64,000 bases of DNA. It comes from Bilabrum cf. latius. Lineage: Eukaryota. Position numbers and translations under genes: made by a program. Every line of letters starts with the position of its first letter. Within the stretch, counting starts at the first letter, position 1. This document shows positions 1-64,000 of the stretch, piece by piece. The stretch spans positions 248,001 to 312,000 of the forward strand of contig OZ237762.1 of the NCBI GenBank assembly GCA_965178125.1. Direction: 5' to 3'. The notes beneath the pieces were generated by a model, which was given only the letters and a program-made list of their open reading frames with translations, had not been told where the DNA came from and ran no database searches.

Positions 1-1454
1 GACCCGTAAACTCCGCCGCGGATATCGAGGCCTTGATGCAGCAGCCATTCGGGGAGCACATCGATGCTGACGGCGGCACTGCAGACGGCAATCTCGGCTA
101 TGATAATATTGCTGATGCTGCAGACGAAGCTGAGACTGGTGCTGCAGACGAGACTGGTGCTGCAGACGAGGCTGAGACTGGTGCTGCAGACGAGGCTGAG
201 ACTGGTGCTGCAGACGAGGCTGAGACTGATGCTGCAGGCGAAGCTGAGAATGATGCTGCAGACGAGACTGGTGCTGCAGACGAGGTTGAGACTGATGCTG
301 CAGGCGAGGTTGAGACTGGTGCTGCAGACGAGGCTGAGACTGGTGCTGCAGACGAGACTGGTGCTGCAGACGAGGCTGAGACTGGTGCTGCAGACGAGAC
401 TGGCGATGCAGTCGAGGCTGAGACTGGTGCTGCAGACGAGACTGGTGCTGCAGACGAGGTTGAGACTGATGCTGCAGACGAGGCTGAGACTGGTGCTGCA
501 GACGAGACTGATGCTGCAGACGAGGTTGAGACTGGTGCTGCAGACGAGGCTGAGACTGGTGCTGCAGACGAGGTTGAGACTGATGCTGCAGGCGAGGTTG
601 AGACTGGTGCTGCAGACGAGGCTGAGACTGGTGCTGCAGACGAGACTGGTGCTGCAGACGAGGCTGAGACTGGTGCTGCAGACGAGACTGGTGATGCAGT
701 CGAGGCTGAGACTGGTGCTGCAGACGAGGCTGAGACTGGTGCTGCAGACGAGACTGAGAATGATGGTGCAGACGAGGCTGAGACTGGTGCTGCAGACGAG
801 GCTGAGACTGGTGCTGCAGACGAGGCTGAGACTGGTGCTGCAGACGAGGCTGAGACTGATGCTGCAGACGAAGCTGAGGCTGATGCTGCAGACTAGACTG
901 GTGCTGCAGACGAGGCTGAGAATGATGCTGCGGGTGAGGCTGATGCTAGCACTCTGGAGCAAGCAGGTGATGGCACCACCGTGTTGTCCTCATCGGCTGG
1001 GCTGGATCAGCCGTCATTCGTGCTGGCGTCGCAGGGTGCAGGGGACTGTGGTGCATCCCCCGCACACGATGCTGCGGCAGGCGCCTTCAGCCCTGGGGGC
1101 GTCAACGATTCGGTGCTGAGCGGCCCCTTGGACGATTTGGAGAACACAGCGGACCTAGATGGCACAGTGATGCTTGCAGGATCTGTGGTGCTGCCACCGG
1201 GAGCGCTGGCGGGAGCGGGAGCCGGAGCAGGGGCGTCAGCCGGTGAAATGTTGGCTGGTGCTGGGGGATAGGCACCCGTGGGTGGTGGAGAAGAGAGCAG
1301 CCGCCTTCAAGACAGCCAAGCAGGCCATAAGGATGCAGTGCGCGGGCATGAGAGTGCAGATGCACCATCAGGGGGCGGGGAGGATGGCCAAGCGAACGGA
1401 ACTGACGGACACACCGGTGAATTTGAGTAGGACAGTGTCGACGGGGGCAGCTAA
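1..1454 (+). CDS. Acidic tandem-repeat protein (ETGAAD/EAETGAAD repeats), 5'-truncated by the window edge
   Basis: The frame of ORFs 33..896 and 981..1271 is open from position 3. It passes in-frame TAG at 894, 1269 and 1428 and first meets TAA at 1452-1454. No recognisable domain. Confidence 0.65.
110..930 (+). repeat. Coding minisatellite of mixed 18-bp (GAGACTGGTGCTGCAGAC) and 24-bp (GAGGCT+18) units
   Basis: The tandem units are directly visible. A ~160-bp higher-order block (DEVETDAAGEV...ETGDAVEAETGAAD) occurs twice, at about 280-440 and 570-730. Confidence 0.95.
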
Positions 1455-1759
1455 TGCACATGAAATACCTAAGTGACTTTAGACTACGCTGCGTGGTTTT
1501 TGTTCTGTTTTGTGCTTTTCTCCTGCGGCGCCCAAGCCAACACAACTCCCTTGCAGATCGCAAGCACACGCCTGTGACTACGACCATATCGTGAGGTTGC
1601 CGCCACACCCACACACCACCCATCCACTCCATTATTCATCCATCCTCAGGAGTACAGAATCGATTGAACACTCCGCACTCCAACCTTCGCTGAAAGCTTC
1701 GCTAGCGCTGGCAGCAGTAGCAAGCAATCCGCCATCTCCCCAGGGACAGTCCCTGGCGC

Positions 1760-2296: not shown

Positions 2297-2429
2297 TGTT
2301 GTTGGAATCCTCGATTTATGTTTTTTACGGCATTTGAGGTGATCGGATCGACAATAATAACGTTACCATCAAAATCTGGTTTTATACATCAACGGATTGA
2401 AAGGTATCACAGCTTTATGCTCAGGTACG

Positions 2430-2960
2430 ATGGGATCGTATCCATCACGAACTATTTTAGTTGTAGGTCTTGATGGCAGCGGCAAGTCAACACTAGTGGA
2501 ACAGGCTTGCAGACCAGTAGATTCGAAGGAGACCATGCTAATTGTGCCAACTACAGGTTGCATAAGAAAGAGAAGCTGTTTCGCGTATGGGGCCAACTGG
2601 ACGTTTTTCGATTGTGGTGGTAGAATTGAGGACAGAGTGCTGTGGCCTGAGACGATGCAGCACGTCGATGGGGTGCTATTCGTGCTCGATTCTGGCGACA
2701 TGGACAGAATCGCCGAACTTCGCAGCTGGGCTGCGCATGTTATGTAGCTAGCAGCGAGAACCGGCGATCGTCCTAGACCGGTCCTTTTTGCCTGCAACTC
2801 TCGTCCAGATCTGCCGAAGGAGCGAACGATGGATGCTCGCACCGCGAAGGAGGCACTGGGCCTGCAGTAGGCTATGCACTCCCAGCCGGTCACCGCCATG
2901 GACGTAGGGGCGCTTGATGGCATAGGTCTAGAGCAAGCGCTCTCGTGGTTTTTACAGTGA
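2430..2960 (+). CDS. ARF/ARL-family small GTPase (176 aa with TAG=Gln)
   Basis: MG start, P-loop GLDGSGKST, DCGG and FVLDSGD. Reading through TAG 2745 and 2868 adds PVLFACN and the Arf-type C-terminus GALDGIGLEQALSWF before TGA 2958. Confidence 0.85.
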
Positions 2961-3295: not shown

Positions 3296-4230
3296 TCACT
3301 CGGCGAGCTCTCCCGAGTCGGCGATGGTGATCTTGCCGGCGGGCTTGCCAGAGGGGGAGCCCTTGCCCTCGACCGTCTTGACCACGTCCATGCCCTCGAT
3401 CACCTTGCCGAACACCACGTGGCGGTTGTCCAGCCAGGGGGTCTTCACGGTGGTGATGAAGAACTGGGAGCCGTTCGTGTCCGGGCCCGCGTTGGCCATG
3501 GACAGGATGCCGGGGCCCGTGTGCGTGAGGCTGAAATTCTCGTCCTGGAATTTCTCTGGGATGTTAAAAGCGGGGAAAATGCGTGAACAGATAGGGTCAA
3601 ATCGCAGGTAGCAGTCATGCGGTTGCGATCGCCCCAAGTGCGACTCATAGTTTGCGCTTGCCGTTCGGCCTTCATTACTCGTTCTCACCACCGTAGATGG
3701 ACTCGCCGCCCATGCCGTTGCCCATGGTGAAGTCTCCGCCCTGGATCATGAAGTTGGGGATCACACGGTGGAAGCTGCTGCCCTTGTAGTGGAGGGCCTT
3801 GCCAGAGTTGCCGGTGCCCTTCTCGCCCGTGCACAGGGCGCGGAAGTTCTCGACCGTCTTGGGGACGTCAGCGCCGTACAGGCCCATAACAATACGGCCA
3901 GCTGCCTCTCCGTCGATCTCAATGTCAAAGAATACCTTCTTGGTGATCTTGGGCTGCGGATCAAAGGCAAGGATCGTTCGTGATTGCTCTATCGTGAAGT
4001 GCCGCGGATTGCACTGTACCATAATGTAGCAATATCTGCACTTTATATCATCCACGTGACTCCAGATTATATTCAAAGTGCACGAGCTCTGCATGTGCGA
4101 CACGGTTCCACGTTGTCAGCAGGGTGTAACATTGGCAGCGAATCGCGCCAAAACTCACAGACTTGGCTTCAACACCGTTGGAAGCAAGAAACAAGCTAGC
4201 AACCGACAGAGTAGCAATCAAGGACATCAT
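3296..4230 (-). CDS. Cyclophilin-type peptidyl-prolyl isomerase with signal peptide (CypB-like)
   Basis: Motifs [47 protein letters not shown] and [10 protein letters not shown]. Hydrophobic first exon 4230-4159 followed by a GTGAGT donor (acceptor uncertain). Second intron about 3690-3558. Ends in TGA. Confidence 0.93.
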
Positions 4231-4385: not shown

Positions 4386-5960
4386 ATGGCCAATGCTGTA
4401 AGAATATTCATACTCGCGATGCGAACGATTTTGTGTCCATGTGCTGTAGTGCCGCATTGAAACACGGTAATCCTTTCTTGCTCAAGCGTTCCATGGTGAT
4501 CACAGGCAGACATCGCTGCGCGAAACAAAGAATACGTGCTGAAGCTATCGGCCTTACCAGAAAACTCAACGTGTGCGGATTGCCGCGCCAAAGGTGAGCG
4601 AGCAATGTGGCCTGCCGGAACGCTCCCTGCTGCGCAAGCGAAGAGTGCGTCACATTGCGCTTCGCCACATTCACATACCTGCAATGATCGCAGCACCCCG
4701 ATGGGCTTCCGCGACTCTTGGTACGTTTATCTGCATTCGATGCTCTGGTCTGCATCGGCAGATCGGGACCCACATCACTTTTGTTCGTTCGGTTACGTTG
4801 GATGAGTGGAAGACGCGGCAGGTAAAGAAGATGATGGACTGGGGCAACCTGAAAGCTAACGCGTACTACGAAGCCAACATGCCCCGTGGCGCGTTCATTC
4901 CCACGGAGCACGACGGCGCGGGGGAGGTGGAGCGCTTCCTCCGGGACAAGTACGAGCGCAAGCTGTGGGCCCAGCCTTGCGACCCCGAGGACTTCCTCGA
5001 TGACTGGGACACGGACGCGGAGGAAGAAGCGAGGAACAGGATAAAGGGAGGCAAGCGGTCCAAGAAGAGCAAGAAGAACAAGAAGGAGAAGAGCTCATCC
5101 TCGAAGAAATCCAAGTCGTCCAAGAAAGACAAGGCAGGCAAGTCCAGCAGGAAGGAGGCACCCCCCCCTCCCAGCCCTGCCCCTGCCCCAGCCCCCGCTC
5201 CCGTCGCTGCTCCGGCCCCTGGTCGATCCAAGGCACAGCAAGAGGAGGCAGATGACGTGTTTGGGGACTTTTTTGCCCCCCAGGGCGGGGACTCGTCCTC
5301 GGGGGGAGGGGGCAAGGTCGCGACTGCCGCGGCCGTCGCTGCCCTGTCCCCACCCCGGGGGTCCGGCGGGGGGGTGTCCTCCTCGGATGTGTCTAGGAGG
5401 AGGAGGGCGGATCGGGCCGGGGCCAAGTCGTCGTCGAGGTCAGGGAACAAGGGTGCAACCTCCTCTTCCTCCTCCTCGTCCAAGAGCAAGCCAAAGCCCG
5501 CGCCGGTCAAGGCCGCCGAGCCCGAGTCGGACGACGAGGATGAGGACCTGTTCGCCATGCACATGTTCGAGGGAACACCGTCCACCCCGGGGGGTGCCAG
5601 CTCCTCCACCTCGGGGACCTCCGTCGGTGCATCGGCCCCCCACTTTTCGACTCCGGGCGAGTCGCCCAACCCCGCCCGCCCCACTGTGGACAGCACCTCG
5701 GCCCCTGCCCCTGGCCCCGCCTCCGCAGAGGACGTGGATCCCTTCGCGGATCCATCAGGCGGCGGAAGCAGTGTGATGAGTGCGCCCAAGGCGGACCCCA
5801 AGGCCGCCATCATGTCGGCCTATGGATAGACCGCGTCTCACGGTGGTGGTGCCGGTTCGGGTGCTGGGGCGGGGAATGGTGCTGGTGCTGGTGCTGGGCG
5901 AGCTGCGGATCCGTTTGCTGGCCTCATGGGTGGGGGCCAGGGGGGGCGTCCGGGGCAGAT

Positions 5961-5992
<32 letters not shown>

Positions 5993-6024
5993 GGATGGCG
6001 ATGGGGATGGGGGCCAGGCCTGGT

Positions 6025-6057
<33 letters not shown>

Positions 6058-6155
6058 GGGATGATGGCACCTCCGTAGGCAATGATGATGATGGCGCCAC
6101 CAGGGGCTAGGCCCATGCCCAACTTGTGGGCTCAGAGGCCGAATGGTGGGGCAGG

Positions 6156-6201
<46 letters not shown>

Positions 6202-6297
6202 GGGGGGATGGGCATGGGCATGGGCGCTATGGCGAGGCCTGGGCAGCCTGGGGCTCCTGGCATGAGCACCGGCGGTCCTCGGCCGTTCGGATCCTGA
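4386..6297 (+). CDS. ArfGAP (SMAP/AGD5-like) with Lys-rich segment, DPF motifs and Met/Gly/Gln-rich tail
   Basis: CADC...PRWAS..LG.FIC..CSG.HR..G.HI.FVRS..LD.W zinc finger. Introns 4398-4505 and 4594-4693. In-frame TAG at 5827 and 6076; TGA at 6295. Confidence 0.9.
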
Positions 6298-6499
6298 ATT
6301 GGTAGCAGCGCGTCAAATGATTATATATGCGTTTCAGTTGTCTGCACGGTCATCCACAGGCAAGCGTGGCAATGGCCATTGGCCAGAAGAATCGTTTTGT
6401 AACGATATGTTTCAGGAAAACTGATATAGTATTGTGGCCTTCGCACTGAACCTGCTGCTGCGCCAATTTATCCGGATCAAATACTGGTAGGACAGCATC

Positions 6500-7880
6500 A
6501 TGCACGCAGTTCGACCGTTGCGATCTCTTGCTACTCGTTCTGTTGCTGTAGGACGCCGGATGGCAAGCACCAAGGCGGCATCCTTACGATTTGCTCGATA
6601 TGGTAGCGTGAAGCAAGTTATCAAGTGAGAGGTATACACTGCCGCGTGCTCTGATGCGCCGAATGCATAGTTGTCTGGTAGTTTCCTACTCCTATCTGCT
6701 CCCCCTCGTCACTGACGCGTTCCTGCTGCAGAATGGAAGATGTCGAAGTCAAGGACCCCGCTGCCGATGAGGTGCAGGTCTCTTGGCAAGCAGCACCGGT
6801 GACTGATAGGGATTTTTCTACAGTGAGGTAGTCATCAATCATGCGGTGTCGAAACCTTGCATCTTGCTCCTTCCATAGCTTGTGTGGTGGGGGCATCTCG
6901 TGACCGTGGGGCGCTCACCCCGATCAGATACGCTCCATTCTGCGCGAATTTACAGCGTGCCAAATTCTAGAATCCGTTTTTGTTCTGCTAAGCGGTCGCA
7001 GATTGAAGGTTTCCTTGCCTCATAGGAAGTCCCCCTGCCAGCGGTGGCGGGGCACGAGGGCATCGGCGTGGCCTCCAAGGTAGGCTCGGGCGTGAAGGGC
7101 ATCAAGGAGGGCGACACGGTGGTGCCAGTGGCCCCAGGGGCTGGCACGTGGTCTAAGACATCTTTGGTGGCCGGCAAGGACCTCGCGGCCATCGAGCCAG
7201 TCAAGGGCAAGGACGTGGGCGACGTGGCCTCTATCTCTGCCGCCATCCTCCCCGGAGTCATGGCACGCGCCATGCTGGATGCCTCAGGGGCGGGCGAGGG
7301 CGACGTGGTCGTGCAGACCATGGGGCTGGGCACCGTGGGCATGTGCGTCAACGCCGAGGCCGCGGCCCGCGGCATCGTCGTGGTGAACACGCACCCCGAC
7401 CACCCCGATTGGCAGGAGCTCAGCGCACACGTCCAGGGCCTCAACCCCGCGGCCATGACCCTCACCGAGGAAGTCGCCAGGTCGCCCGAGTTCGCCCGTG
7501 TGACGAGTGACCTCCCCCGCGCCAAGGCCGTGATCGACGGGGCCGGCGGGGCCGCTGCTCTCTAGGCCGCGTACGCCCTCGGCCCCGGTGGGCAGGTGAT
7601 CACGTACAGCAACGCCTCGAGGAAGCCGCTGACCCTGTCCTACAAGCAGCTTCTTGGGCTGGGCATCTCGGCCAGGGGATTCAGCGTGGCGCAGTGGGCG
7701 GCGGCGGCCGGCTCCGATGCTGTGCAGGCGGCCGTGGGCGCCTCCCGCAAGGCGGCCGGCGACCTGGCCATGGGGACAGGCGCGCTTGTGCCCGTGCGGG
7801 CGGAGAAGATGGCGGGGTGGGAGGGCGCGCTGCGAAAGGCCAGCGATCCGTACGAGAGGCAGGTGGTGCTGGTCATGTGA
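6500..7880 (+). CDS. Mitochondrial trans-2-enoyl-CoA/ACP reductase-like MDR oxidoreductase (MECR-like)
   Basis: Arg-rich presequence, LPAVAGHEGIGV, GDTVVP..PG.GTW and GGQVITYS..SRKPL. Introns 6625-6731 and 6823-7001. In-frame TAG at 7023 and 7563; TGA at 7878. Confidence 0.8.
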
Positions 7881-8145: not shown

Positions 8146-9987
8146 ATGGGGAGGAAAAAGAGAGCAAACAGGACGAAGGCAACTGCTTGGTGCTACTATT
8201 GCCACAGAACCTTTGAGAACGAAGTAAGACAGTATCTTCGCCGCGCTACGTAAGGGTATCTAGATCCCGCGCCACTGTTGCCCTTGTCATTTCACGCCAT
8301 TGCTGCCCAGCGCAGGAGGTGCTTGTGGAGCACTAGCGTTCCAGACACTTCAAATGCATAGTTTGCAACAGAAAGGTGAGTTGTCCGTGTCGTAAAGGCT
8401 GCACGCCCCAACGAAGCTGCATTCGAAGCCACCGCGCTCCCCTGCTTGCCAACCTTGTTTGCACCGCAGATGGCTACTGTTTCTGCGATGGTTTCGCACT
8501 GTGCTCAAGTGCATAAAGAGTCAGTTGAGGCAGTTCCCGGCGCAAAACAGGGGTACGATGACATCAACATCGAGATCTTCGGCATGCAAGGTGTTCCACC
8601 GGAAGCACTTGCCGAGCATGGGATCACGTCAGGAGCAGACCAGCAGCCAAACAGAAAGAAAGCTAGAACCGAATCAAATAGTAGTACTGTAGGTGGGGGT
8701 CCCTCCGGTGGGCCTGGCTAGGGGGCGACGCAAATGCAGGGCGGATTCGAGGCAGTTGCTGGAGCTGCCGGTCCACTGGCCATGGGCGGCCCTGGGTTCT
8801 CAGGAATCGGCGGGCCGGGAGTACCATAGGGCCTCGGCTATTTAGGTGGCCCGGTTGGCACGGGCGCGTCTTCGCTGGGAGCGAACGCAGCCGCTGCCGC
8901 CGCTGCCACAGCGGGCCGCAGCGTTGCGCCGCAAGGGGCTGCACCTGGCGCGCAACCGGGCAGCTAGGCCACCGGGCTGGCATAGCTAGGATCGAATGCC
9001 CCCGGCAGTGCCCCAACCTCTGCACCCGTAGCCACGAGCTCCTCCTTCTCCTCCTCGTCCTCCTCGTCATCCTCGTCATCCTCCTCTGCTCCCTCTGCGG
9101 CGATCTCCTCCGCGGCCCGTGCCGTCCCCACAGGCCCGCTGCATGACCCGGTGCAGGAAACAGCGGACGGCACAATGCTTCAGTTCACCGACGACGGGGA
9201 GTCCCCCGAGGAGAAGAGGGCCCGTTTGCCCAAACACGCCATCGCGGTGCTGCAGGCCACTGGGGACCTAAGGGGAGCACAGCGTGTGGCACAGGAGGAG
9301 CACCATCGTGCAATGCAGCGGGCGGGTATGGCAGCCCCGCAGATGGTGGGGGGCATGAGGCCTGGCATGCAGGCACCGGCAGGTACCAGCACGGGAATGG
9401 GATTTGGAATGGGAATGGGGATGCAGGGGATGCAGCCCGGCCAACCGATGGGGATGGGTGGCATGCGGCCCGCGGGAATGATGATGTCTGGAGGGGCGTA
9501 TGGTGGAGCATACCCCGGCATGGGCATGGGCATGGGGGGGGCGGGTTCAGGCCTGGGGCAGCACTATCACCACCCTCCATACCCCATGCCGGGGGCAGGG
9601 GCGGCGGGGATGGGGAGTGTACCACCTCAGGGGCACGTCCCAGGGCCTGGACTGGGATTCGGCATGCAGATGCAAATGCAGACGCAGACGCAGATGCAGG
9701 CTCCATCCTCCTCGGCGCCATTCTCCGCGCCATTGCCACATGCATCTTCGGTGCCCACCGCAGTGCAGGCAGGTACTGGCCAGGTGCAGGTCCTGCCTGC
9801 TGGGGCGGGGGCTGGGGCCGGGGCTGGGGCTACAGCGGCGATTGGGGCGGCATCTGGAGGGATGCCAGCAGCTGCATCCTCCGCGGGATTTGGGGCAGGG
9901 GCAGGGGTAATAGCAGCCCCGCCTGCAGCGCCAGCAGTGGCCGTGACTGGCCAGTAGGGTCACGTTCGCAAGAGCAGGTGGGGGTGA
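8146..9987 (+). CDS. ZNF207: BuGZ/ZNF207/SUF4-like double C2H2 zinc-finger protein
   Basis: MGRKK..WCYYC.R.FENE / EVLVEH*RSRHFKC / HCAQVHKE..IEIFGMQGVP, plus SPEEKRA near the C-terminal region. Introns 8224-8315 and 8376-8469. TAG at 8334, 8719, 8827, 8965, 8983 and 9955; TGA at 9985. Confidence 0.88.
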
Positions 9988-10324: not shown

Positions 10325-12013
10325 TCACCCCGTGCTCCCGTACGAAGAGGCCCCGGCTCCTCCCAGCGCGCCCGACGAGGCACCCCTGATCTCGGAGGTC
10401 CGAAGCACCGCCCGATCGTTCCCCCTCAGGCTCGCATGCGCCTCTGCCGTCTCCCCGCTCGCACGGCTCTCCGCTCGCTGGGCCGCGGTGGGATCAGCAG
10501 AGGAGCTGCGGGAGTACAGCGTGATGCCATCGCCGCTGCTGCTGCCGCTACCCCCCAGCGCGCCACCCCCCATCCCTCCCCCGCCCTTGTCCTTCCCCTT
10601 GCTTTTCGCAGCCCTCCCGCGACCGGGAGGCGCCGCGAGCGCGGAGGGCGTCCCCCCTGCGGAACCGGATCGCGCGGCGCCCCCCCTCTCCGGCGTCCCC
10701 GGCACCTCCAGCGCACCCCACCCGTCGTCCTTGTTCTCCATGGCGTCCTCTCTGCCCACACCGAATCTCGTGGCGGTGGCCGCGCCATCCACAAGCAAGG
10801 AGGCCTCTAGAGCCGCGGCTGCCCTCTCAGTGTCAACCCCGCCACCCACCGCGTCACCGTACTCCCCAGCACCCGCGTACACCGCCCCCGCGGCACCCCC
10901 CTCCTCCAGATCACCTCCCCCACGCAGCTCCGGATCCACGAGGGTCGAGTGCCCCTGCTGCAGCACCCCCGACGCGCCCAGAGCCAGCGCCCCTGAGGCA
11001 CCGCTCAGCTTGCCCGACCCCGAGCCTACCCCAGTCCCCAGCACCCCCTAGTTGGGGGCACCGTCCCCGTGCCCCCTCCCCGCCATATACCCGGACCTGG
11101 TGCTGTGGAAGTTGTCCGCGATGTCAGAGAACACGTCGGCGAAGCCAAAGGCCTGGCCCGCCCTGGAGGCCACGGTGCCCCTCTGCGCTTTGGTGACGGA
11201 GGGCACGCCCACCGCGCCCCCGGGCTCGTACTCCGCGCTGGGAAATGCCACAAAGTAAAGAGTGGCGAAGCCCAGCATCTCGATGCACAGGATAAAGTTG
11301 TTCCACTGGTCCGCGTCCCCGATTGATGCAGGCGCGGTCTGCACAAGGAGTGCCTGGTAGTAGGTGGCGATCACGCATAGCTTGATGGTGAGGAACTTGA
11401 AGATGGGGCTGAATCCACGGAGCAACTCCTTAGTGGCCATGTAGTACAGCAGCAGGGCGTACAGCGCCGCGGTGTACACGACGTTGTAGGTGATGCTGAG
11501 AGGCCACTGGTAGTACGGAGAGTGGTAGTAGCCAGCGCCGAGCATGACCAGAGACAGGACGCCGGCCACAGGCTTTACTATCACGAATATCAACACTACC
11601 TATCGGCACCTACGCAGGAAGGTGGCGCCGAGCTGGATCACCGGCAGGCAGCAGAAGGGCCAAGGGTGCTGCATTGAACCCTGCTCCTCGATCCCGTGCA
11701 GGCATGCAACCTCGCCTCCGCAATACTCTACAATCAACACAAGAAACGAATATACTACGAGTGCTTCATAAATATCCCGCACTGTGGCCAGGTATAACTA
11801 GGCTGCAGGTGCTGCCAGCGAAACAAAGCTAAGCAGGGCGTAAACTGGGAGCATGATGATCAACCGGATCACATGTTTTTGCATCTCTGGGCGGCTCCAA
11901 GCACTGAGGTGCTACCACATGTGAACGCAGCTTGCCGCGATTGCGATGAAGGCGCACGTCCCGGCGATCCCCAGGGCAGCCCCTCCGTCAACAAACTGCG
12001 CAGCGGAGCCCAT
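10325..12013 (-). CDS. TMEM184: TMEM184/organic solute transporter alpha (LAZ1-like) membrane protein
   Basis: Single frame encoding QKHVIRLIIMLPVYA, RDIYEALVVYSF, HPWPFC, FKFLTIK...TYYQ and NFILCIEM. TAG at 11912, 11798, 11600 and 11048; TGA at 10325. Confidence 0.9.
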
Positions 12014-12246
12014 CGCGGCAATTCCTAGCTACAAGCAAAGTTTGGCGAAGGATTATCCCAAGATTCGAAGTATTTGCACTTAATTTCAATTACTGGATGC
12101 AATGATGCACCCGAAGGCTGATGAAATGCGAATTTAAGTGGCATATTCCCGGTTTTTTGCGGCCTTCATCATGGGGTTCCGTGAACGTTCAACGAACAAA
12201 AATAAAAAATAACCCAACCCCGTTGACCTCCAATAACGGTCCCCGT

Positions 12247-15200: not shown

Positions 15201-15407
15201 TAAATGATATTTCATGTAGGATCGTTGTAGTGACAGCTCATCAAATTATGTACAGTGTTCGTCTCACCCCTGGAACTACCAGTCTTGCGCCACAGACCAG
15301 CTCCCGCATGTCTGAAGCTGCACTGGATTTAGAGCCTCGGGGGCGGGCTACGCCTCAATGTAACATAACAATGCAATAATAAAGGGTGCCTGCGCATATA
15401 AGATCAT
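12247..15407 (-). CDS. Secreted GH3 beta-xylosidase-like glycoside hydrolase with N-terminal ricin-B (QxW) lectin domain
   Basis: Signal peptide MILYAQAPFIIALLCYIEA, QxW repeats, EALHG, WSPDINLFRDPRWGRGQEVPGEDP, KHF, MCSYN, SDCGA nucleophile motif, EQEGQDR and an Fn3-like tail. Introns 15267-15183, 14045-13893 and 13750-13591. TAG at 15348 and 15276; TGA at 12247. Confidence 0.92.
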
Positions 15408-39354: not shown

Positions 39355-39503
39355 CTAATGCTACTGTACTGGCTATTTTCTAGGTGAGAAATGGCACTTG
39401 GTTGTGCAGAAATCGCCGGTCGATGATCTCCTTTCCGTTGGCAGAGTGGTAGCGTGCAGTTTGCAGCATTGCTCGCCTTGCTCGCCACTTCTTCGTCCGC
39501 AGC

Positions 39504-42479: not shown

Positions 42480-42580
42480 GTGGTGCCCAGAACCTGACGG
42501 AATCTGGTTGCCGGGCCAGACGCGTAATACTTTTGAATCACACGTTCACTGTCAGCATGGGACCAAACAAATCAAAATCT

Positions 42581-45172: not shown

Positions 45173-45303
45173 GATGGCGACCTAATACCAGTAAAGTGTG
45201 CTCAGTTGCAGTTGGGGCTTAAGTATTCGTTACAGTATCCATAATTCCGATTTAATCTCGAGAACGCACAAATTCGTGCAAACTCTCGTCTAAACGATTC
45301 AAT

Positions 45304-49320: not shown

Positions 49321-49645
49321 TCAGCCGGGGGGCAAGACCGGCAGCTCTGGAGCGTGCGGCAGCTCGCTGCTGGTGCGTAGCCTTGAAAAAGATAGGATAG
49401 GATAGCTGGTACATGCAACTGGATCGCCGTGCATCGTGTTCATCTGTTCAATGCGAATATGGCATGGGCACGCTCACTGCGGACACTTCCACCACCCCAT
49501 GGCACGGGTGACAGCGGGACTAGACCCTGATTATGCTAATTGCCAGTGGCAAATGCCTCTGCGAAAAGCCCAATCTGCACACCAAGCCCCTCGCTCGGTT
49601 ACACCCTCGGCGGGGATCGGATCAAGGGTCTGATCAAGGATCGGA

Positions 49646-50581: not shown

Positions 50582-50683
50582 TTTGTTGATTCAGTTTCGG
50601 GTAATGTGCCGACTGCGTCGAAGGGACAAGATATTCCGAGTTGCACGTGGCCAGCTGCAAAGCATGGCCCACTCTCGCGAGAA

Positions 50684-53600: not shown

Positions 53601-54892
53601 CCGAGACCGCGCTGAGGCTGGTGGAGGCTGCTGAGGAGAGGCTCCTGCGGGAGACCGCGGTGGAGGGCGGGATCCAGAGGGGGGACGGCGCGGACAGCAG
53701 CAGCATTGTGAAGGCGGTGCGCAAATCGGGGGCGCTGCCCGCACTGGGTCTGGCGAGGGCGATGGCGGTGGCGGTGGAGGCAGCCGGTGCGGATCGAAGC
53801 CCAGAGGCGCTGGGCGACGATGCCAGTGGGGGGGCACGCCGCAGCGAGCCAGATAGCCGCGTCCTTGCGAGCATCCGTGAAGCAGCTGCTCGGGCGGCCG
53901 AGGCATCACTCACGGGCTGGGGCGCGCTGTCCATGGCACCCAAGCCGAGCCCCAGCGTGACACGCGCCCCCAGCACACCCGCCATCGAGTTCCTAACCGC
54001 GGCCCTCGCCAAGACGATGCCGGGGTCCAACTGGGACCAGGGTGTGCTCAGGGCCCTGCAGGAGGCCTCCGAGGGGGACTCGGAGCTGGCCGACCTGCTC
54101 CGCGGCACAGAGGTTGCAACCGGTGGGGGCGAGCCCGCCGCTGGAGGCGCAGCGGACAATCGCGTGACCGTGGCTAGTGTGACGAGGGCGCTCCGCCAGC
54201 TGCGGGAGCGCGCGAGCCACGGAGGGTAGCACCGGTGCGGCATTCAGGCGGGCGTGGCGGAGGCGCTGGGCATGCTCAACGGATAGGAGGCGGGGCGCGG
54301 CACTGCGGTTGCTCTTGCTCTTGAGGTGTGGCCGCCGGCGAGGCTACCCAGCTCCGGTGGGGACGTGGGTGAGCCCCCCGAGTGGGTGCCGGGGGGGGCA
54401 TCCCCCGCCGAAGAGGTTGCAACCGGGAGTTCCAGCCAGAGCGGCGGTGGTCGCAGGGCGGGCGAATCGGCTGGGAGCACCGGAGGTCTGCGGCTCTGGG
54501 CACTGGCGGATGCCTGGGTGAGGGTGAGGGCGGGTGCCGGGTAGGAGAAATCGATGGCGGTGCCTGTTGTGGTTGCAACCGGGACCGCACCGTCGGGCGG
54601 TGGAGAGACTGGGCGGCTGTCCCCTCTGGACGCCTGGAGGGTGAGGATCCTTAAGAGGGGGGTGTCCGGTGGGATGGGGGGCGGCGTGGCGGTGGTGCGC
54701 GAGGGCGAGTGGAGGGATGCGGCGAAGGGGGGCTGGACCAAGGAGCAGCAGGACATTCTCCGCTCCGCCCCATCGGCAGGGACGCTGCGCAGGGTCCTGC
54801 GGGCAGCCAGAGGGGAGCATGCAGCATCGCCGGGGGAGCAGCAGTGCTCGCTTGTGAGGCACGCCCTGCACTCGGCAGGAATCCAGTTGTGA
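50684..54892 (+). CDS. Organellar helical-repeat RNA-binding protein (FASTK/HPR/OPR-like) with C-terminal RAP-like domain
   Basis: One frame from ATG 50684 to TGA 54890 with 10 TAG. Repeats FSSIDLAQLL.AL, MNDQTLAQL..SLA, LTHQGLCNA..G.A, LAPVGLAQV.WAY and MSP*QLANV. C-terminal WRVRILKRG...VAVVREGEW. Confidence 0.75.
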
Positions 54893-55034
54893 GCATCATA
54901 GCGTCCATGGTGCTGAAACGATACCAAATAATACAGTTGTGTGATGCACTTTGACGATTCGACTGGAGTAATATTGCGTCTGGCAGCGTATCGCTGTGAG
55001 ACAATCAGCTCCATTTCATACTCGCAGGGCGCAT

Positions 55035-55423
55035 TCACTGCTTGCCGGCCTTCTTGCGGGCAGCTGGGCTGTTCTTCTGCCAGTAAGCGGACACCACCTT
55101 GTCACCCTTGGCGGCCTCGGCCAGCTTCTCGAGGGTCTTCTGGTCGCCCTTGAGGTATGCGGCGGAGTAGCAGTACCTGATCTGGTCCTGCTGCTGATCC
55201 CACCCACCTGTGAAATGGGGTACCAACAAATTTGCATGATATCGCGAGTATTTTCCAGAAACTGGTTGGAAGTGATACGCAAGAGCAGCCAAACCAGCAC
55301 ACCGCAATCGGCAATCTGCAGTCTTGCAGCGAAATACCAAACTGAGCCCGCCACGCATCGAAAAACAAAGTAAATTCAAACAGTTGCCTCACCGGTCTGC
55401 TTGGTGAAACGTCCGCGCGCCAT
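55035..55423 (-). CDS. Small basic uncharacterised protein (67 aa)
   Basis: ATG 55423 and intron 55392-55208 (GTGAGG..CACAG) give MARGRFTKQTGGWDQQQDQIRYCYSAAYLKGD...KKAGKQ. Strong GC3 bias; ends in TGA. Confidence 0.7.
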
Positions 55424-55611
55424 CTTCCTAAATTTATTTCTTGCAGATTTCGTGGCTAGCGATCCGATCAAAAACCATTTCGCACGTCACAATAACAAAG
55501 TGCAACTTTAATTAAAACAGGACTTAAAGTGATTCAGAAACAAAGACTGAGACGCATATTATTATGCTGTACATATAAGTAGTTACTGCCAGCGGTAGTA
55601 TGGCATGCAAG

Positions 55612-56688
55612 TTAGAGTCTGCCAAAGTTGAGCTGCATGCCCTGAATAGCTACGCCTGCATTCGGATTCTTGGGTGCAGGGCGTTTAGCCGCCGGATGTG
55701 TCCCCTGGGAGCTTGCCGCAGAAGCTTCCATTTCAGCTGGACTGTCTCCGTATGCGAAAGCGGTGCCGTGATGCGGTCGACGTGGGCCACTCCCTCGTCG
55801 CGGTGTGGCGGACGTCTTGCTGAGCTCCGCCGGTGCACGCGCCCAATCCTTGGCCAGCTCGGTATGCTTAGTCGATGAAGATGTAGATGATCGCATGCTC
55901 GCTGGGCCCTATCGTGTATCACCTCGATCTCGGTTGATTGCGAGCCGCCTGGTGGCCACATCCAGCTCGTGCTGCAGGGCCGCGACAGCGGCACGGTGAG
56001 CATCTCGCTCCGCAGATGTGCGCTTTAGAGCCCGTTCCTCCTGCTTCAGCACCTCCTCTGCGTGCTCCTCGGCTGCCTTCTCCATAGCGAGCTGCTGCCT
56101 GGTCCTCCGGATGTCTCCTTGCAGCTTAGAGAGAGCGGCGGCCTCCTGCCTCTACGTAGCCTCGAACCGGCCAATCTGTTGCCGAGCGTCAGCAAGAGAG
56201 TGGGATACCTCGGCATGACGCCGAGACACCGCAGCGCAGTGCTCGTTCACTTGGACGATGCCTTTGTCGATCAAGGCGATGCGGCTGTCGCTGACAGTTA
56301 GTCGCTACGAGTGCGCGCGCTTGCGATTCTCCGCCTCAGCAGCCCACGTCTTTGTATCCTGTTCGACCATTGGGGGCCTCAGCTCGGCCTCCGGGAGCCT
56401 TGTGATCGGGCCTGGCTTGTGAGCGAATATGACATACCGGCGAGCTAGTGCGACCTGCACGGCGTCCGCAAGTTCCAGCGACGTGCTTTCTAGCGTCGCA
56501 ACCTTACTCATCACATCACTTAGAATGCGAGCTTGCTTTGACCGCTTCTGGATTGCAACAGCGCGCTCCGTCCGGGCTCGGGCAGCTGCGTCACGTTCTG
56601 TCTCAATTTCCTCCTCTGCCCGTGCCAGCTTTGCCTCTACCTCCTCAATCTCCCGCCCTAAAATTCCAACAATACCATGAGAGCTCAT
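55612..56688 (-). CDS. Coiled-coil protein of unknown function (358 aa)
   Basis: ATG 56688, E/R/A-rich heptads, TAG at 56305, 56152 and 55909, TAA at 55612. Confidence 0.65.
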
Positions 56689-56842
56689 TGCTTACGTACA
56701 ACCGTGAGAGCTGGAGCAGCTATGACGCATTGATGTGTGAGCAAAGCTGTTGCCGGCGTCGTGCGACCACCAGCAGCAGTTGCAGTTGGTCGATGGAGCG
56801 AGCACGGCACAAATAACACGAAGATCTGAAATAACTAGCCAT

Positions 56843-58191
56843 ATGCAATCATCCTCAGCAATAGAACAGTATTGCCAAGTTCCCATGAGAGTTCAACCGG
56901 CGCATTCTGTACCGATAGCAATCGATGCAGCAGCAATACAAGTTCAAGAAATTGCTCCGTCATCAGTCGAGCACGAACTAGTGCAGCTGGGACAGAAGCG
57001 ATAGCGCTCAGAGAGTCCTGACAACGTTGTTGATAGTCAACAGCTGGATTCCGTGCAGAATAGTGGGGAAAGTCTTTCAACAGACGTCCAGAGCGCCGCA
57101 TTCGGTCCTGCAGCATCGCAAGAGGAGTAGCGCTCGCCAAAGCGGCCTCGGATTCTAGAAGAAAGTGAAGTCGAGAAAATCAACACGCTAGGGAATACAA
57201 AAATTCAAGGTAGCCAAGGAGGCAATACGAGCCCATCGAGACGCAGTGCTCGCGCACCTCTCTCTGTCGCTGCTGCAGCACTATCAGCATGCGTGCTGCC
57301 ACAGCCTACCGAGCCACTTCCGAGCAAAGTTGAGATAGAGCTGCAGCAGGAAATGGTATCATCCTACGGCGTGCCCCCAAAGGAACTTAATGTTTCAAAG
57401 AAGCTAGAGTACCAGGCTCTCCCAGCAGCATCAGTCCAGGGAGTTCAGAAGCGTCCGGCAGGCGCCCTAGTGGCCGAGTGCCAGGTCCAATCCGCGGGCG
57501 TGGCACCTCAGATGAGTGCCACAGCAAAGATGCGCAGCGGGCCCATTCTAGGCCTGTACACCCTAGATGCTCGCGGGGGGTGGGACGACCTGAGGCTCCT
57601 GGCGGCCGGGTGCAAGCAGGCCGGCCGGGCTGCCAGAGTCACGGTCCGGGCGGTGTCCAGGGCATGCATGGAGACTATACACGGGATCGCAGACGGAATG
57701 CACGCACTGCCCGACTCCTTGATCGGCGCGTATCCGTCCTCTGTAGCGAGTCTGGAGCCTGTCTTGGCCGTCGCTTCCGACGAGGCATCCGCGGTGGATC
57801 CGGTCCAGCTCGCAGTGAGGGTGGCGGCGGCGAGAGCAGCAACGGCTGCCCAAGAAGCTATCCTCGGAAAGGACCCGTCGCTCGCCGTCGAGAGCTCGGG
57901 CAACTACCAAAGAGCCCTGCAGCAGCAAGCAGCATCCAAGGCAGGGCTTGCCCCAGGCGTGCGACAGAGAGACCTCCGCACCACCCCGCCCGTCGCTCTG
58001 GTCGTTGGGGCAGAGAGGATCCGTGCTTGCCTTCTGTCCATCCTGCTATCGGGAGACGGGTCCCCCCACTCGATCGAGCTGGTGGCTCGCAGCAGCATGT
58101 TCCTCACAATGGCAAACAGAGCACAGGCGCAGCTCGCGGCCCAAGCAGCAGCCCGTGCCACCGCTTCACCGAGCCACGGACAGGGACAGGA

Positions 58192-58230
<39 letters not shown>

Positions 58231-59404
58231 CGACGGCGAGCTGTCGCCAATCAAGGGTCGCCAACTGTGGCCCAGCTCGCCATCAAGGCGCATGGAAGCA
58301 CCGATGACCATGGGCGACACTGGATTCATGCATCGCCCAGGTCACGGCAGCGACCAGTCCACTCCAATTGAGCATGCACCCGCGCACCAGGCAGGACCAT
58401 CCTCGTCATCATCGGCTTCGTCTTCATCCTCGTCCGCGTCGTCTTCTAGCGCCTCATCGATGGGACCCTACACTCCCGCTGGCCCATTCATTCATGAAGA
58501 GCCGCCCCAGGACACGCGCGAGGCACCTCCGCTGCGCATCCATGACATGCTGCGCGGGGGCGCTCAAGGTCTCGAGAGGGGCATGGCCAGGGGCACTCTG
58601 GGAGGGCATTCTGGCTTCATGTACGACGCAAGGTTCGGGCATGGGGGAGTGGGTGGACAGCTCCAGCAGCGTCTAGTCCTGTCGCACCAGCCGCAGATGC
58701 ACCGCCACAGCAGGCTCATTCCCAGGGTCAGCGGCAGCACCAACAACTCGGGCAGCAGCATCTCCTCACGCACCCACTCCGCGGAAGGCAGGCGTAGAGC
58801 ACGCAGCGGGCCAACGCCCGGCCCAAGCGGAGCCGCAGTGCCTCGGCACCCCGGGCTGCGTTCTGCAGGGGCTGCCGGCATCACGGGCTTTGCCGCCGCC
58901 CTACATGCCCTGACGCGATTCAGCTGGCCAGTGGAGGGACGGCATGGCGACGTCGACGCTGCCTGTCTGCTGTAGCAGTACTGTGACGAGTGTGCCAAGC
59001 AGGGAGTAGAGCAGAGCGGTGCGTCTAGGACTGGCCCGCACGGCACTGGGTCGGGCTCTGCCCTAATGCAACCTGACGAAGACGAGGACGAAGACCAAGA
59101 CGAGGAGGAGGACGAGGACCAGACTCAGCGTAAGGGCGATTCATACGAAGCATTCGCTCCTGCATCGCGCCCCCCAAGCGGCCTTGCAGTGGTGGCGCTC
59201 GCCGGCTTGCTCGTGCTGTACACCCGCGGGATCGAGGACTTCCACATCGCGGCACACGGTCCGGACGCAGGCAGTGCCCCGCCGACCAGAGGGCAGCACG
59301 GCGTGCTGGGGCTCCTCCAGCAGCTTGCAGGGGCTCCCTGGGCCAGGTTTGCACTGGGTGCTTGCACCCGTCCTCAGTAGGCCTCGATGGAGACCCAGGC
59401 GTGA
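56843..59404 (+). CDS. Uncharacterised ~850-aa protein with low-complexity inserts
   Basis: One frame from ATG 56843 through TAG 57002, 57128, 58973 and 59378 to TGA 59402. Start codon uncertain. Confidence 0.6.
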
Positions 59405-59574: not shown

Positions 59575-62500
59575 TCAGCTCTGGTCCAGCCACCCGTTCG
59601 CATTCACCCGCACCTCTACTGCTCCCAGCGAGCCCCCGCTCGACAGAGAGTACACCTGCCCCCCATCCCCGGCCCCGGCACCCACCGTGCCAATGCTCGT
59701 CCCCTGCACGCCCGCCTATCCATACGCCTCTGAAAGCAGCCGCTCCGCCAGCTTCCTCCCCCTCGCTCTGATGTCCCGCACGAGCAGCCGGCACAGGCGG
59801 CCCTCCTCGATGCAGTCCTCCATGTGACGAGTGCCTAGCCCCTCCTCCTCCACACGGTGAAGGAACCCGCGGACCACGCTCCACTTCTTCCTGCCCGCCT
59901 TGGCCCCTTGTTCCCCGGGGCCGCCCGACTGCACGATCCCAGGCCCGATCTTGCCGCCCACCACCTCGCCGGTCTCCGACTCGGCCGCCATCGCAACGGA
60001 GGCCAGCTCCTCTGCACAACGCACCAGCCCCTCCACAGCGTTTGCCACACCATCCCGCGCCAGCCCGCTGCGAAGCACCAGCCGAGACACATACTCTGCA
60101 TGCGCATCCTAGAGCTCAGCGAATCCCGTGCTCCCGCTGGCCCCACCTGCACCTGCTCCTGCTCCTGCTCCTGCACCTGCCCCGGCTCCAGACCCACCGC
60201 CCACGCCTGCCTCTGCGATCCTACCCATGAGCCGATCGGTCTCGGCCTGCACCACATCCACCTGCAGGAAATCCTCAACGGCGCCCAGCCCGTGCTGCAG
60301 CTGCCAGCTCGCGAGACCCACCTCGTGCCTCCAGGCAGCCACGGCACGCCTGGCCCTGGCCACGGCGTGGTGCCGGTGGTGCCGCACCAGTGCCTCCCCC
60401 TCGTCGCTGTCTTCATCTTCGTTTTCATCATCTTCGACCCCGTCTGCACCGCCCGCGCCCTCTGCCCTGCCGCCCCTCCCGCTGGCATTGGACCCGGCAG
60501 CCGCCATGGCCCTCGCTGCTTCCCGCTCCTTCACCACGTCCAGCACCGTGAATGGTGCCGGGCACTTCAGCGCACCCGGCCCCGCGCCCGCGCCTGCTGT
60601 TCCCCCCTTGTTCCGGTTTCTGGGGGACCCCTGCATGTATGACTTGATCGAGGAGACGGACCCGCCCGCCGCTGTGCCCTTGCCCAGGCCCTTGTCCGAA
60701 CCCTTGCCTCCACCCCTCGTGCCGTCTCCATCCCCGGCCCTGGGCGAGCTGTGAGGCGTCCTCGAGTCTCTGCTGAGACCCCCTGCCCTGAACCCGATCC
60801 GATGCTGCTGGCCCCTTCTCCAGACCTCGTGCAGGAGCTTGCGCCCCGCACGGATGCGCAGGAGCACCCTACCCAGCTCCGAGAGAACCACCTGGTGGGC
60901 CCGGGGAACAAGGAGAGGCAGCGGCCACTGCACCTGGTAAGACGGCGCCGCGCAGCTCCAGGTTCCGCTGGGCACCACCATGCCGGCCGCAGCCCGCAGT
61001 GTGCCGCTGGATCGAGCCTGCCTCGCGCTTGCCGCGACTGTGCTTGGCATGGGCGCATCGAGCCCTGCTTGCCGCGCTTCCTCGCGCGCCAGCAGCTCCG
61101 CGGCCCTGTCCTGCAGCGCAGTGAGGGAATCCCAGGCCTTACCTCTCGAGGCGGGTGCTTCCTCCAGGGAACAGAAGGTCCAGGAGGACAGCAGCGCCCG
61201 GCTGGCGCGGGCCATGCCGCGCCCCTGCCGCACCGCAGCCCCCAGCCCCGCCACGCCCAGGAAGCACCTCCCGGGGCACAGAGGCAACCGGTTCCTCGCG
61301 CCCTCGCTCAGGCCCGGCCGGCTGACCAGTCTGCAGGCACTCGCGATGGAGGCGCCCTCTCTGGATAGGGCGAGGCCAGACCCATGGCACGAGGCGCTGA
61401 GCCATTCGCCACCATCGTCACCCGATGACGAGCCCGTGGATGACGAGGAAGACGTCCCTGCTACCGATCCCGACCGAGCCACTGCACTGACGTTCGAAGC
61501 CACGTGCACCCCAACTCGCTTGCTGCCAGGGTGGGACTCCACCCGAACAACGAACCGGATAGAGTCAGCAGCAGCAGCAGTCGCGGGAGACGATGAGGCC
61601 TCCCGACCGGCACCCGCCGCAGTTACGTCGCCTCTGTCGGTCCCACTACCCGATGCCTCGCCAGCATGCCGCGGTACAAGCGACTGCGCCGATTCACCTC
61701 TCGAGAGACGCAGCTCCACACTGTCGTGCCTGGCTCCATCCGTGGAGGTTCGCTGCACCACTGAGGCTTGGGCGTGAAGGGAAGCCCGCCCCGTCTAGGA
61801 CTGTCCCTCTCCCCTGCTGCCTTCCGCACTCGTCACACTTTCACTCGTCACACTCAATCTGGCGCGCAACCTCACGGCACCCATCGCATCCAGCCCCGCC
61901 CAGCACTCCCCGCCTGACTCCCCCGCGCCGCCCTCATCTTCCTCGCCGTCCTCATCATCATCGACGCCCAAATACCCAACCGCGTCATCATCATCATCTC
62001 CACCTTTCTCACCCCCCCGTCGCTCCCTGCCGGGGAACAGACCCAGCCCGGCCCCCCTGGACCTGCTCACCCGCGCCACGCGACTGCACACGCCTGCAGC
62101 CGCCAGCTCGCAGTCGGCCTGGGGCAGGTCACCCTCGCCCACCTCTTCGGCGGCCGGCCGCAGCAGCAAGCACGCGTCCAACTCCGCCTCCAGCTGCCCC
62201 TCCGCACCCCGCGCACCGGATCGCAATGGCACATCCACAACCAGTTCAACAGCAAAGGCACCGCGCACATCGCAGGCCAGCCCGTGCCAAAGGGCACCAG
62301 GACCCTTCCGAGGGCACCAGAGAACAGGCCTGCGCTCTGCCAGCCGCTCCAGGTCGTCTGTACCCGCAACACCACCGACCTTGCTGCCCTTTGCGAGGCC
62401 GTCTCCGTCTTGATCTGCCCCTTTGGAGGCAGCACCCGTGCCGAGGCCGTCCTCCTCCTCAACGGTCTCCGCGCTGGCGATGCTCTCGCGCTGCAGTGCG

Positions 62501-64000
62501 CTGCACATGTGCTCGAGCGCCGCACCCACAGGCACGCACCTTCGATCCGCCGCCAGCAGCCCAGCCACCACCCGAGCGCTACCCCCGCCGTCTCGCCGCC
62601 TTATAAACCCTGGGCCAGGCCCCGACCCGCCTGTAAATTCGCGTCCACTGTGCCCACCCCCCAACCGGTCTGGCCATGCCAATGCAAAGCACCGGGGAAC
62701 AAATCCAAGCCGAAAGCAGTCTCCTGCGCGCTGCAGCACGGGGTTGGCAGAGCCCCCGTCCACGGCATCCAGCCCCTCCCCACTACCGGACACCCAATCA
62801 GCCGCAGCGCGGCCCAGCGCGGCGCTGATGACCCGCCCGATCAAGCCCGCATCGGGCATGGCACACCCGTTGGACAGCTCCTCCGCGATCGCCCGCCGCT
62901 GCGCAATGGACAGCACAGACCCACCAGCGCCCGTTCTCCCGCCCCGGCCTATGCTATGCCCCCGCCCTTCTCCCCTTCCTTTCCCTCTCCCTCTCGCCCG
63001 CCTCTCCTGCAGCGTCATGCCACAGGCCTCCCAGGGCCGCCAGCTAGACAATAGCGCCATCGATTCCTTCTCTTCACCTCCCCCGACACCGCTATGGTTG
63101 CCCCCGACCCCGACGCCGCCAGCAGCAGCATCACCCGCGCGCCCCCCAATGGGGGCAAGGGGCACGCAGTTGGCAGCAGCAACGGAAGGTCCCTTTGTCT
63201 CCAGCAGTGCAGCGGAGAGCAAGCCGTCTCCTTGCAGGACCGTGTGACGAGTTGCGACCAAGTGGTCGAGCAGGTGCCCGGGACCCACGCACAGCTGCCA
63301 CACCCTGGACAGCAGCAGCGACTCGATCCGCCTCGTGCAGAGGTCCACGCTCAGAGAGTGCCAGGCCCCCTGCTCCGCCAGCGCGCCCACGGCTTCCAAT
63401 ATGAGCTCCGAGTCCGTCCCGAGCTGCCGCCGCAGAACCGCGACGCCTGTCTTGCTTTCGTCTCCGTCCTCCCCCTCCTCTGCTTCATCGTTGTCCTCAC
63501 CAGCGGGAGCCCCCCTCCCCTGCGCCAGCACCAGCCCGCCGCCTCCCATGCCACCTGACCCCGCTCGCGACGACACCCGCCGGAGGTGCAGCAGCAGCTC
63601 CTCGGAGCTCGCACTCGTCACACCATGATCCCCCGGTCCATCAAGTTCGGCGCGCACCCCGTCCACCCCGGCACCCTCTCCACCCACGCCTGCCCCATCG
63701 GCCCCGCTGCCCCAGCCCCCGCTTGTCTCCGTCGCCACCCGAAGCAGGTTGGATATCTTGCCCAGACGAAGCACCCTCTTGGCCAGCCCGACGGGCATGA
63801 GCGCGTGGGGGATGTTGGCCGGCTGCAGGGCAAACGCAGATGTCCACGCTCTCTCGCTGCTCACTCGCGGGGCCCAGCCAGGGCGAGCGCGCACGAAGAA
63901 AATACCGGTCGTAGAGGCCATCGAGGCGGCGACCTGGTCTCCAGACCCGGCAAACCAGCTGATATCCGATGCGGGCAGCTGTCCTAGTGCCATCCAGCCC
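59575..64000 (-). CDS. Gamma-tubulin complex component (GCP/Spc97-Spc98 family, GCP4-like), 5'-truncated, with large low-complexity insertions
   Basis: IPH.LMP..LA.RVL.LGK, LL.HL.A.RH..LQGDG.L, YQV.WPL.L.V, FLQVDVV.A, F.EL*.AH.EY and terminal RVNANGWL. TAG at 61795, 60109 and 59716; TGA at 59575. Confidence 0.75.

Follow-up and report, generated by a model that had tools for sequence, protein, structure and literature searches.

Departures from the standard nuclear genetic code are rare, and codes in which UAG and UAA carry different meanings are rarer still, being described, within the portions of the literature drawn on here, in the fornicate Iotanema spirale, a rhizarian, the green alga Scotinosphaera and a few ciliate lineages. 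In Iotanema (Fornicata), UAG encodes glutamine while UAA and UGA remain stops, and the release factor eRF1 carries a T32G change in the GTS motif (PMC5304391). Among ciliates, Protocruzia tuzeti and two phyllopharyngean lineages likewise reassign UAG alone to glutamine (PMC11687900); elsewhere, UAG is read as leucine in Rhizaria sp. exLh and as serine in Scotinosphaera (PMC5304391, PMC11687900), and it stands for glutamate or leucine in some ciliates. Joint reassignment of UAA and UAG (together, UAR) to glutamine has been published for many ciliates, ulvophytes, hexamitins and the aphelid Amoeboaphelidium protococcarum, where TAG and TAA are both reported as glutamine (cited in PMC5304391, PMC6299283 and PMC11687900). 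Here, we examine a 64 kb stretch of DNA, hereafter the window (positions 248,001 to 312,000 of contig OZ237762.1, assembly GCA_965178125.1, filed under Bilabrum cf. latius), for which an earlier note, made from the sequence alone, had proposed that UAG is a glutamine codon and UAA and UGA are stops. Our analysis of the sequence indicates that, in this nuclear code, UAG is very probably an ordinary, fairly rare glutamine codon, with UAA and UGA serving as stops and UGA as the most used of them. The split-code precedents listed earlier (Iotanema, a rhizarian and some ciliates) were incomplete, as PMC11687900 adds Protocruzia tuzeti, the two phyllopharyngean lineages and Scotinosphaera.

The window shares with Iotanema the codon table and, apparently, the condition of a non-ciliate flagellate. 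The two differ in that UAA is the main terminator described for Iotanema whereas UGA takes that role here (15 of 16 long frames), and in that the window encodes a MECR-like mitochondrial reductase and a MAK kinase that groups with stramenopiles, in trees holding no metamonads. Protocruzia tuzeti and the phyllopharyngeans likewise read UAG as glutamine and keep UAA as a stop; unlike these ciliates, the window consists of long chromosomal DNA at 63% G+C, one exon of which measures 11.6 kb, and its MAK and NEMF proteins do not group with alveolates, few of which are in the trees. Amoeboaphelidium, an algae-associated organism, offers another stop-to-glutamine reassignment in a flagellated protist, but both UAR codons are reported as reassigned there, while UAA is not sense here. 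Finally, exLh and Scotinosphaera also separate UAG from UAA in a non-ciliate nuclear genome, to leucine and serine instead of glutamine.

The length of the reading frames shows that UAG is sense. Under the standard code, the longest stop-to-stop open reading frame (ORF) of the window spans 741 amino acids (aa), whereas reading TAG as sense gives ORFs of 3883, 1568, 1534, 1507, 1474 and 1354 aa. Reading TAA as sense merges no long ORFs and leaves the maximum at 741 aa, and reading TGA as sense makes many frames moderately longer (maximum 1313) because it removes the commonest stop triplet, the two strands together holding 1456 TGA, 791 TAG and 317 TAA. The longest frame (27387-39038, minus strand) encodes a CFAP65/hydin-like flagellar protein of 3883 codons in one exon, with 15 TAG and a terminal TGA, and matches the Pfam families Ig_CFAP65_4th (5.7e-24), HYDIN_VesB_CFA65-like_Ig and ASH. 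The five other frames of this 3884-codon ORF contain 218 TGA, so that about 44 would be expected per non-coding frame against none in the coding one; a frame of 3883 codons without TAA or TGA cannot be non-coding. Across 17 stop-to-stop frames totaling 16,666 codons, we counted 90 in-frame TAG (79 after the first Met), in agreement with the manual figure of about 90 reported earlier, and no TAA or TGA, zeros that follow by construction from delimiting the frames by TAA and TGA, so that the independent evidence is frame length. In the 12 frames supported by Pfam, all 50 in-frame stop triplets are TAG, compared with 293 TAG, 99 TAA and 673 TGA in the five other frames of these stretches. Moreover, Pfam matches lie in TAG-containing frames for ARL, ArfGAP, TMEM184, MTHFS, MAK, NEMF and GCP, the proteins that reading through TAG had been said to restore. 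Beside 554 CAG and 101 CAA in the 17 frames, UAG is used at about 4.7 per 1000 codons and makes up about 11% of all glutamine codons. As an indicator of the coding frame, third-position G+C (GC3) did not cleanly separate the frames.

Two conserved positions point to the amino acid, the homolog searches having been run with TAG translated as X and thus blind to the meaning of the codon. A MAK/ICK-type kinase (39504-42479, plus strand; Pfam Pkinase 7e-58) is encoded by exons 39504-39590, 39692-39758 and 39925-42479, separated by two GT..AG introns, 101 and 166 bases long; it contains six TAG and ends in TGA. One of these TAG codons (40092-40094) occupies the invariant kinase glutamine of the motif IMYxILQGL, which is Gln in 120 of 120 MAK homologs and in all four printed CDK alignments. 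The NEMF/Rqc2 gene (45256-49320, plus strand, Met at 45304; Pfam NFACT_N, NFACT-R_1 and NFACT-C; human NEMF as PDB match at 3.1e-136) carries four TAG, the first of which (45577-45579, motif TxLGLDR) aligns with Gln in 110 of the 120 homologs listed (otherwise four Thr, three Leu, one Met, one Ile and one gap) and, in a separate comparison, with Gln in the human NEMF, yeast Rqc2 and bacterial RqcH chains. Both codons sit within ungapped conserved motifs. Furthermore, when TAG was translated as ten residues in turn and the bit scores were summed over Pkinase, NFACT_N and Solute_trans_a (six sites), Gln ranked first (502.6), followed by Arg (498.9), Lys (498.0), His (496.2), Glu (495.5), Ser (494.1), Ala (493.1), Tyr (490.3), Trp (487.7) and Leu (487.1). 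A column likelihood over ten alignable sites, two of them in the poorly conserved kinase tail, favored Gln at +12.2 bits, ahead of Arg (+4.1), Ser (-1.2), Lys (-6.7), Leu (-14.3), Glu (-15.3) and Tyr (-19.4). The meanings used by exLh and Scotinosphaera thus fit less well, Leu falling 15.5 and Ser 8.5 bits under Gln in the Pfam sum.

A divergent relative uses the same code. When proteins were searched exhaustively with a portion of the CFAP65-like protein, the matches comprised an 80-aa piece identical to the window together with P0256 (600 aa, at 71% identity) and P0257 (299 aa, at 56%), and members of the latter two clusters are linked to a JGI metagenome contig, L001, of 10,869 bases and 60% G+C. 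Its longest ORF grows from 624 aa under the standard code to 3073 aa, running off the contig end, when TAG is sense, a gain which implies that the relative also reads TAG as sense; neither TAA nor TGA readthrough brings any gain. The CFAP65-like proteins of the window and L001 align over 2889 pairs at 59% identity, with 15 TAG in the former and 23 in the latter and no column shared. Using a substitution table built from this alignment itself, we scored 15 strict TAG sites, defined by at least 11 of 20 identical neighbors and no gap, whose partners are six Gln, two Lys, two Ser and one each of Arg, Glu, Asp, Ala and Gly. Glutamine obtained +20.5 bits, compared with +2.5 for Lys, -0.1 for Ser and -11.9 for Glu, and six Gln partners among 15 against a 3.4% background correspond to a binomial P of 5.6e-6, a proportion compatible with the rate at which true Gln codons conserve Gln in this alignment (53%). 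Looser filters, admitting 19 and 33 sites, again placed Gln first. In the MAK kinase domain, 226 of 250 residues are identical between window and relative (90%) while 125 of the 250 codons differ synonymously; the invariant glutamine is TAG in both, and a second conserved position is CAG in the window and TAG in L001.

The MAK and CFAP65-like genes lie head to head in both the window (39026-39600) and L001 (1-1700), and MAK has its two introns at the same positions in each. Public protein collections carry the CFAP65-like gene and its ortholog as fragments only (80, 299 and 600-606 aa), the expected outcome of standard-code gene calling on this lineage.

Sequencing data provide a view of the same codons after splicing. 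Four runs (X5, X6, X7 and X8) were compared with window positions 39001-59000, and contigs of X5 and X7 connect 39590 with 39692 and 39758 with 39925. The two skipped intervals have GT..AG ends and match the MAK introns that had been predicted from the reading frames. The X5 piece continues through 39925-40732 without a differing letter, covering the kinase TAG, and the NEMF TAG is covered by pieces from all four runs with no difference. In total, 22 of the 29 in-frame TAG of 39001-59000 lie within listed X5, X7 or X8 pieces and show no differing letter; zero differing letters are listed for any of the four runs, which therefore yield no substitution data, and parts of the region are uncovered in some runs. 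The listed pieces track gene boundaries, one X5 piece has a poly-T loose end at 54958, and a third joint in X8 (55204 to 55390, CT..AC) fits the intron of a minus-strand gene. From the joints, the gene-bounded pieces and the single poly-T end, we infer that the contigs are spliced transcripts in which TAG is retained. The earlier note had asked whether TAG might be spliced out or edited; it is unchanged in the contig joined across both MAK introns, a probable transcript. The contigs are cut or mis-joined at runs of repeats, with spurious joints around 49257-49299. Taken together, the long conserved genes, the same signature in the relative and the TAG in spliced contigs uphold the proposal that UAG is sense, and the invariant-Gln sites, the Pfam scoring and the codon comparison with the relative uphold its identity as Gln.

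Several observations weigh against this assignment or parts of it. The remaining NEMF sites (2-4) are Arg-dominant or gapped, the ARL sites align to Lys/Asn/Gln and Asp/Ser, the MTHFS site to Glu/Pro/Asp and the MECR-like sites to Glu/Ala and Gly; the majority of TAG sites are at variable positions and individually little informative, as are those of TMEM184, which align to Arg, Lys, Gln and others. Additionally, Arg is just 3.7 bits under Gln in the Pfam sum, all six Gln pairs with the relative have TAG on the L001 side and CAG on the window side, and at the four strict sites where the window has TAG the partners are Arg, Glu, Asp and Lys, never Gln. That UAG is sense with another meaning (Lys, Arg, Ser, Glu or Leu) could draw on such alignments to R, K, S, E or D and on the second rank of Arg in both scores, yet we consider it highly improbable: TAG occupies two positions that are glutamine in nearly all homologs, the comparison with L001 puts Gln ahead of Lys by 18 bits, of Ser by 20.6 and of Glu by 32, Leu trails in the Pfam sum as given above, and CAG/TAG interchange and TAG/TAG conservation are both seen in a kinase domain of 90% identity. 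Least credible of all is that the TAG triplets are untranslated (in hidden introns, pseudogenes or assembly errors) or edited to CAG in the mRNA. The genome has introns, no run is registered as RNA and X5 is flagged 'probably DNA', a further point against our interpretation of the contigs; against such an explanation, TAG falls inside ungapped conserved motifs, survives unaltered in a contig spliced at both MAK introns with no differing letter in four runs, and lies in a frame that runs for 3883 codons with neither TAA nor TGA, and L001 places its TAG at different positions of the same genes while 59% protein identity is kept.

The separation of UAG from UAA and UGA raises two further alternatives. 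Joint reassignment of UAA and UAG (a table 6 type code) is a much commoner variant (PMC5304391, PMC11687900, in the portions cited), and UAA could be too rare at 63% G+C to show, given that TAA is the rarest stop triplet of the window and that NEMF alone among the 16 long frames ends in it. However, third-position A/G ratios are 0.18-0.27 in CAR, GAR and AAR codons (R being A or G), so that 14-21 in-frame TAA would be expected beside 79 TAG if UAA were decoded like UAG, and none is seen in the 16,666 codons (P at most 5.6e-7). Together with the failure of TAA readthrough to extend any long ORF, in the window or L001, and with the NEMF TAA at 49318-49320, which falls where the yeast and human proteins end and is the only secure TAA terminator seen, this makes a UAR=Gln code very unlikely and sustains the earlier statement that UAA is not sense. 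Equally unlikely is a dual UAG, meaning Gln within genes and a context-dependent stop at some ends, as is known for UAR or UGA in Condylostoma, Parduczia, karyorelicts and Blastocrithidia according to the portions of the literature drawn on. Only about 20 gene ends were examined, a number with which a minor terminator role for UAG would be compatible, and this too counts against a purely sense reading. None of these roughly 20 ends in the window is a TAG, no well-defined C-terminus coincides with one, the long frames end in TGA or TAA, and TAG occurs throughout genes including near their ends, for example at codon 880 of 887 in the frame 56741-59404. Fifteen of the 16 long frames end in TGA and one (NEMF) in TAA, some frame ends being exon ends rather than gene ends; with three small genes that also end in TGA, and with no TGA where about 44 were expected in the CFAP65-like frame, UGA is confirmed as a stop. 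The earlier tally of 18 TGA and 4 TAA terminators holds in that frames end in one or the other, but its exact split was not reproduced.

For UAG as a glutamine codon distinct from UAA, published UAG-only lineages suggest a mechanism (PMC5304391 and PMC11687900, as far as the portions drawn on describe it). A tRNA-Gln(CUA), derived from tRNA-Gln(CUG) by one anticodon change, would decode UAG; its CUA anticodon would pair with UAG and not UAA, allowing the two codons to differ in meaning, and eRF1 would lose or weaken its recognition of UAG, completing the reassignment. The same combination of tRNA-Gln(CUA) and altered eRF1 is predicted for Iotanema. Scans for tRNA genes found none in the window or in the metagenome contigs L001 and L002, Rfam scans of these sequences gave no match, and the window contains no eRF1 gene.

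Placement of the organism draws on single-gene trees with local supports and on best hits, with no metamonads and few alveolates in the trees. In a FastTree phylogeny of NEMF (48 rows, from the 120 matches listed plus the query), the window does not belong with animals, with fungi (chytrids among them) or with green or red algae; it forms a group with a cryptophyte and unnamed sequences, at 99% local support, beside a clade containing a diatom. Among named matches of MAK, the thraustochytrid Hondaea fermentalgiana ranks first (67%), ahead of oomycetes, ochrophytes and Cafeteria. In the MAK FastTree, built from 43 rows, the query falls within a stramenopile clade (96%), where its sister (82%) comes from a EukProt transcriptome (TSA prefix GECG) that also supplies the best TMEM184 match. 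For the NEMF core, the ESM Atlas returned only clusters dominated by Chlorophyta and Haptophyta, too coarse to place the organism. We tentatively place it as a flagellated eukaryote with few introns, near or within stramenopiles. An identity as an aphelid, the group of Amoeboaphelidium, is ruled out by UAA not being sense and by the position of NEMF outside the fungal clade that includes chytrids. Positions 39001-59000 are matched without a differing letter by runs filed under four organism names in four studies; it may have been present in several cultures as a co-cultured companion, as prey, as a parasite or as a contaminant, and the names could alternatively denote strains.

The codon table, of NCBI table 15 type, is thus a known one, with a substantial chance of an independent, undescribed origin common to a small clade. 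We know of no variant nuclear code reported in the stramenopile supergroup. In the literature covered, supplementary tables and subscription journals lying outside its scope, no UAG-only code is reported in a stramenopile, a labyrinthulomycete or any heterotrophic flagellate besides Iotanema. The independent and undescribed origin proposed earlier is plausible; in its specific form, that UAG alone became Gln in a GC-rich, intron-poor clade of heterotrophic flagellates within or near stramenopiles with at least two divergent members, it is a tentative proposal to which we give somewhat less than an even chance. A further non-ciliate lineage would supply an independent data point on the release-factor and tRNA changes that separate UAG from UAA. 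Since the code also occurs in a relative whose copy of a fast-evolving protein is only about 59% identical, it is a trait of a clade and could be dated by sampling relatives. Codon-capture models expect disuse of a stop before its reassignment and usually invoke A+T pressure; disuse of UAG at 63% G+C is not obvious, and G+C pressure should work in favor of UAG, not toward its depletion, an argument against simple codon capture. In practice, gene callers that assume the standard code break these genes, and a table 1 annotation of the genome would be badly wrong.

Beyond the MAK, NEMF and CFAP65-like genes, the window encodes several recognizable families. An ARL/Arf-family GTPase frame (2361-2960, plus strand; Pfam Arf 1.8e-18) has two TAG and ends in TGA, as does an ArfGAP frame (4543-6297, plus strand; Pfam ArfGap 1e-29), also with two TAG, in which the start of the zinc finger probably lies in an upstream exon. 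The MECR-like enoyl reductase frame (6807-7880, plus strand; Pfam ADH_N; PDB MECR 1.9e-29) contains four TAG, two of them within the homolog-aligned part, and ends in TGA. A TMEM184/Ost-alpha transporter (10325-12052, minus strand), recognized by Pfam Solute_trans_a (2.1e-62) and homologs, has five TAG (four after the Met) and a terminal TGA, and the MTHFS frame (16112-17083, minus strand; Pfam 5-FTHF_cyc-lig 4e-22, with a PDB match) has three TAG, one of them inside the Pfam domain. At the window end, a gamma-tubulin complex protein (GCP; 59575-63999, minus strand), open at that end, has three TAG and ends in TGA; its match to Pfam GCP_C_terminal (5.7e-05, 23.2 bits) is under the family cut-off of 25.8 bits, and a PDB search with its C-terminal half gave low-complexity matches only.

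A glycosidase gene and an esterase gene occur together in the window. A GH3 glycosidase with a ricin-type lectin domain (12247-15211, minus strand) consists of at least two exon frames (12247-13746 and 14042-15211) with one TAG each and matches Glyco_hydro_3, Glyco_hydro_3_C, Fn3-like and Ricin_B_lectin, and a fungal-type glucuronyl/acetyl-xylan esterase-like protein (42581-45229, minus strand; Pfam GCE_fung 1.8e-22 and AXE1; X5 piece 42563-45181) has four TAG, three after the Met, and ends in TGA. Their joint presence hints at a lifestyle of degrading plant or algal cell walls. The CFAP65-like and MAK families are tied to flagella, and their presence implies that the organism has a flagellate stage. 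The genome's long single exons and its few, short introns are consistent with those of a compact protist genome.

Three small genes lack TAG altogether and terminate with TGA: a cyclophilin split over two exon frames (3296-4115, minus strand) and an FKBP-type isomerase frame (49646-50590, minus strand), both identified by eye from the translation, and a small Lys-rich gene (54958-55470, minus strand) with an intron of 185 bases (55205-55389). Two of the three have the highest contig depths, and the lack of TAG would fit avoidance of a rare codon under high expression, contig depth being a poor measure of expression.

Several further frames carry TAG without an assigned family. These comprise a low-complexity protein with no Pfam family (8380-9987, plus strand; five in-frame TAG), a coiled-coil frame ending at TAA (55612-56691, minus strand; three TAG), the 887-codon frame at 56741-59404 (plus strand; four TAG), and three longer frames. 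The 1507-codon frame (17425-21948, plus strand) has 16 TAG, some of which probably precede the true start; that of 1568 codons (21978-26684, minus strand) has four; and that of 1534 codons (50288-54892, plus strand; X5 piece 50681-54509) has 11, about eight of which would follow a probable start near 50993. In-frame TAG-TAG pairs occur at codons 477-478 of the 1568-codon frame and at codons 50-51 and 580-581 of the 1507-codon frame.

Repeats are a further feature of the window. Microsatellite-like coding runs, translating into GM, SQ, GA or GK repeats, are present at 40800-42400, 5900-6300 and 9300-9900. A tandem array of short acidic repeats (ADEAETGA-like) fills positions 1-1454 and is open in three frames on both strands, which leaves its coding frame ambiguous; in the plus-strand frame 3-1454, one repeat unit reads AADxTG where the others read AADETG, the x being a TAG one G-to-T change from GAG.

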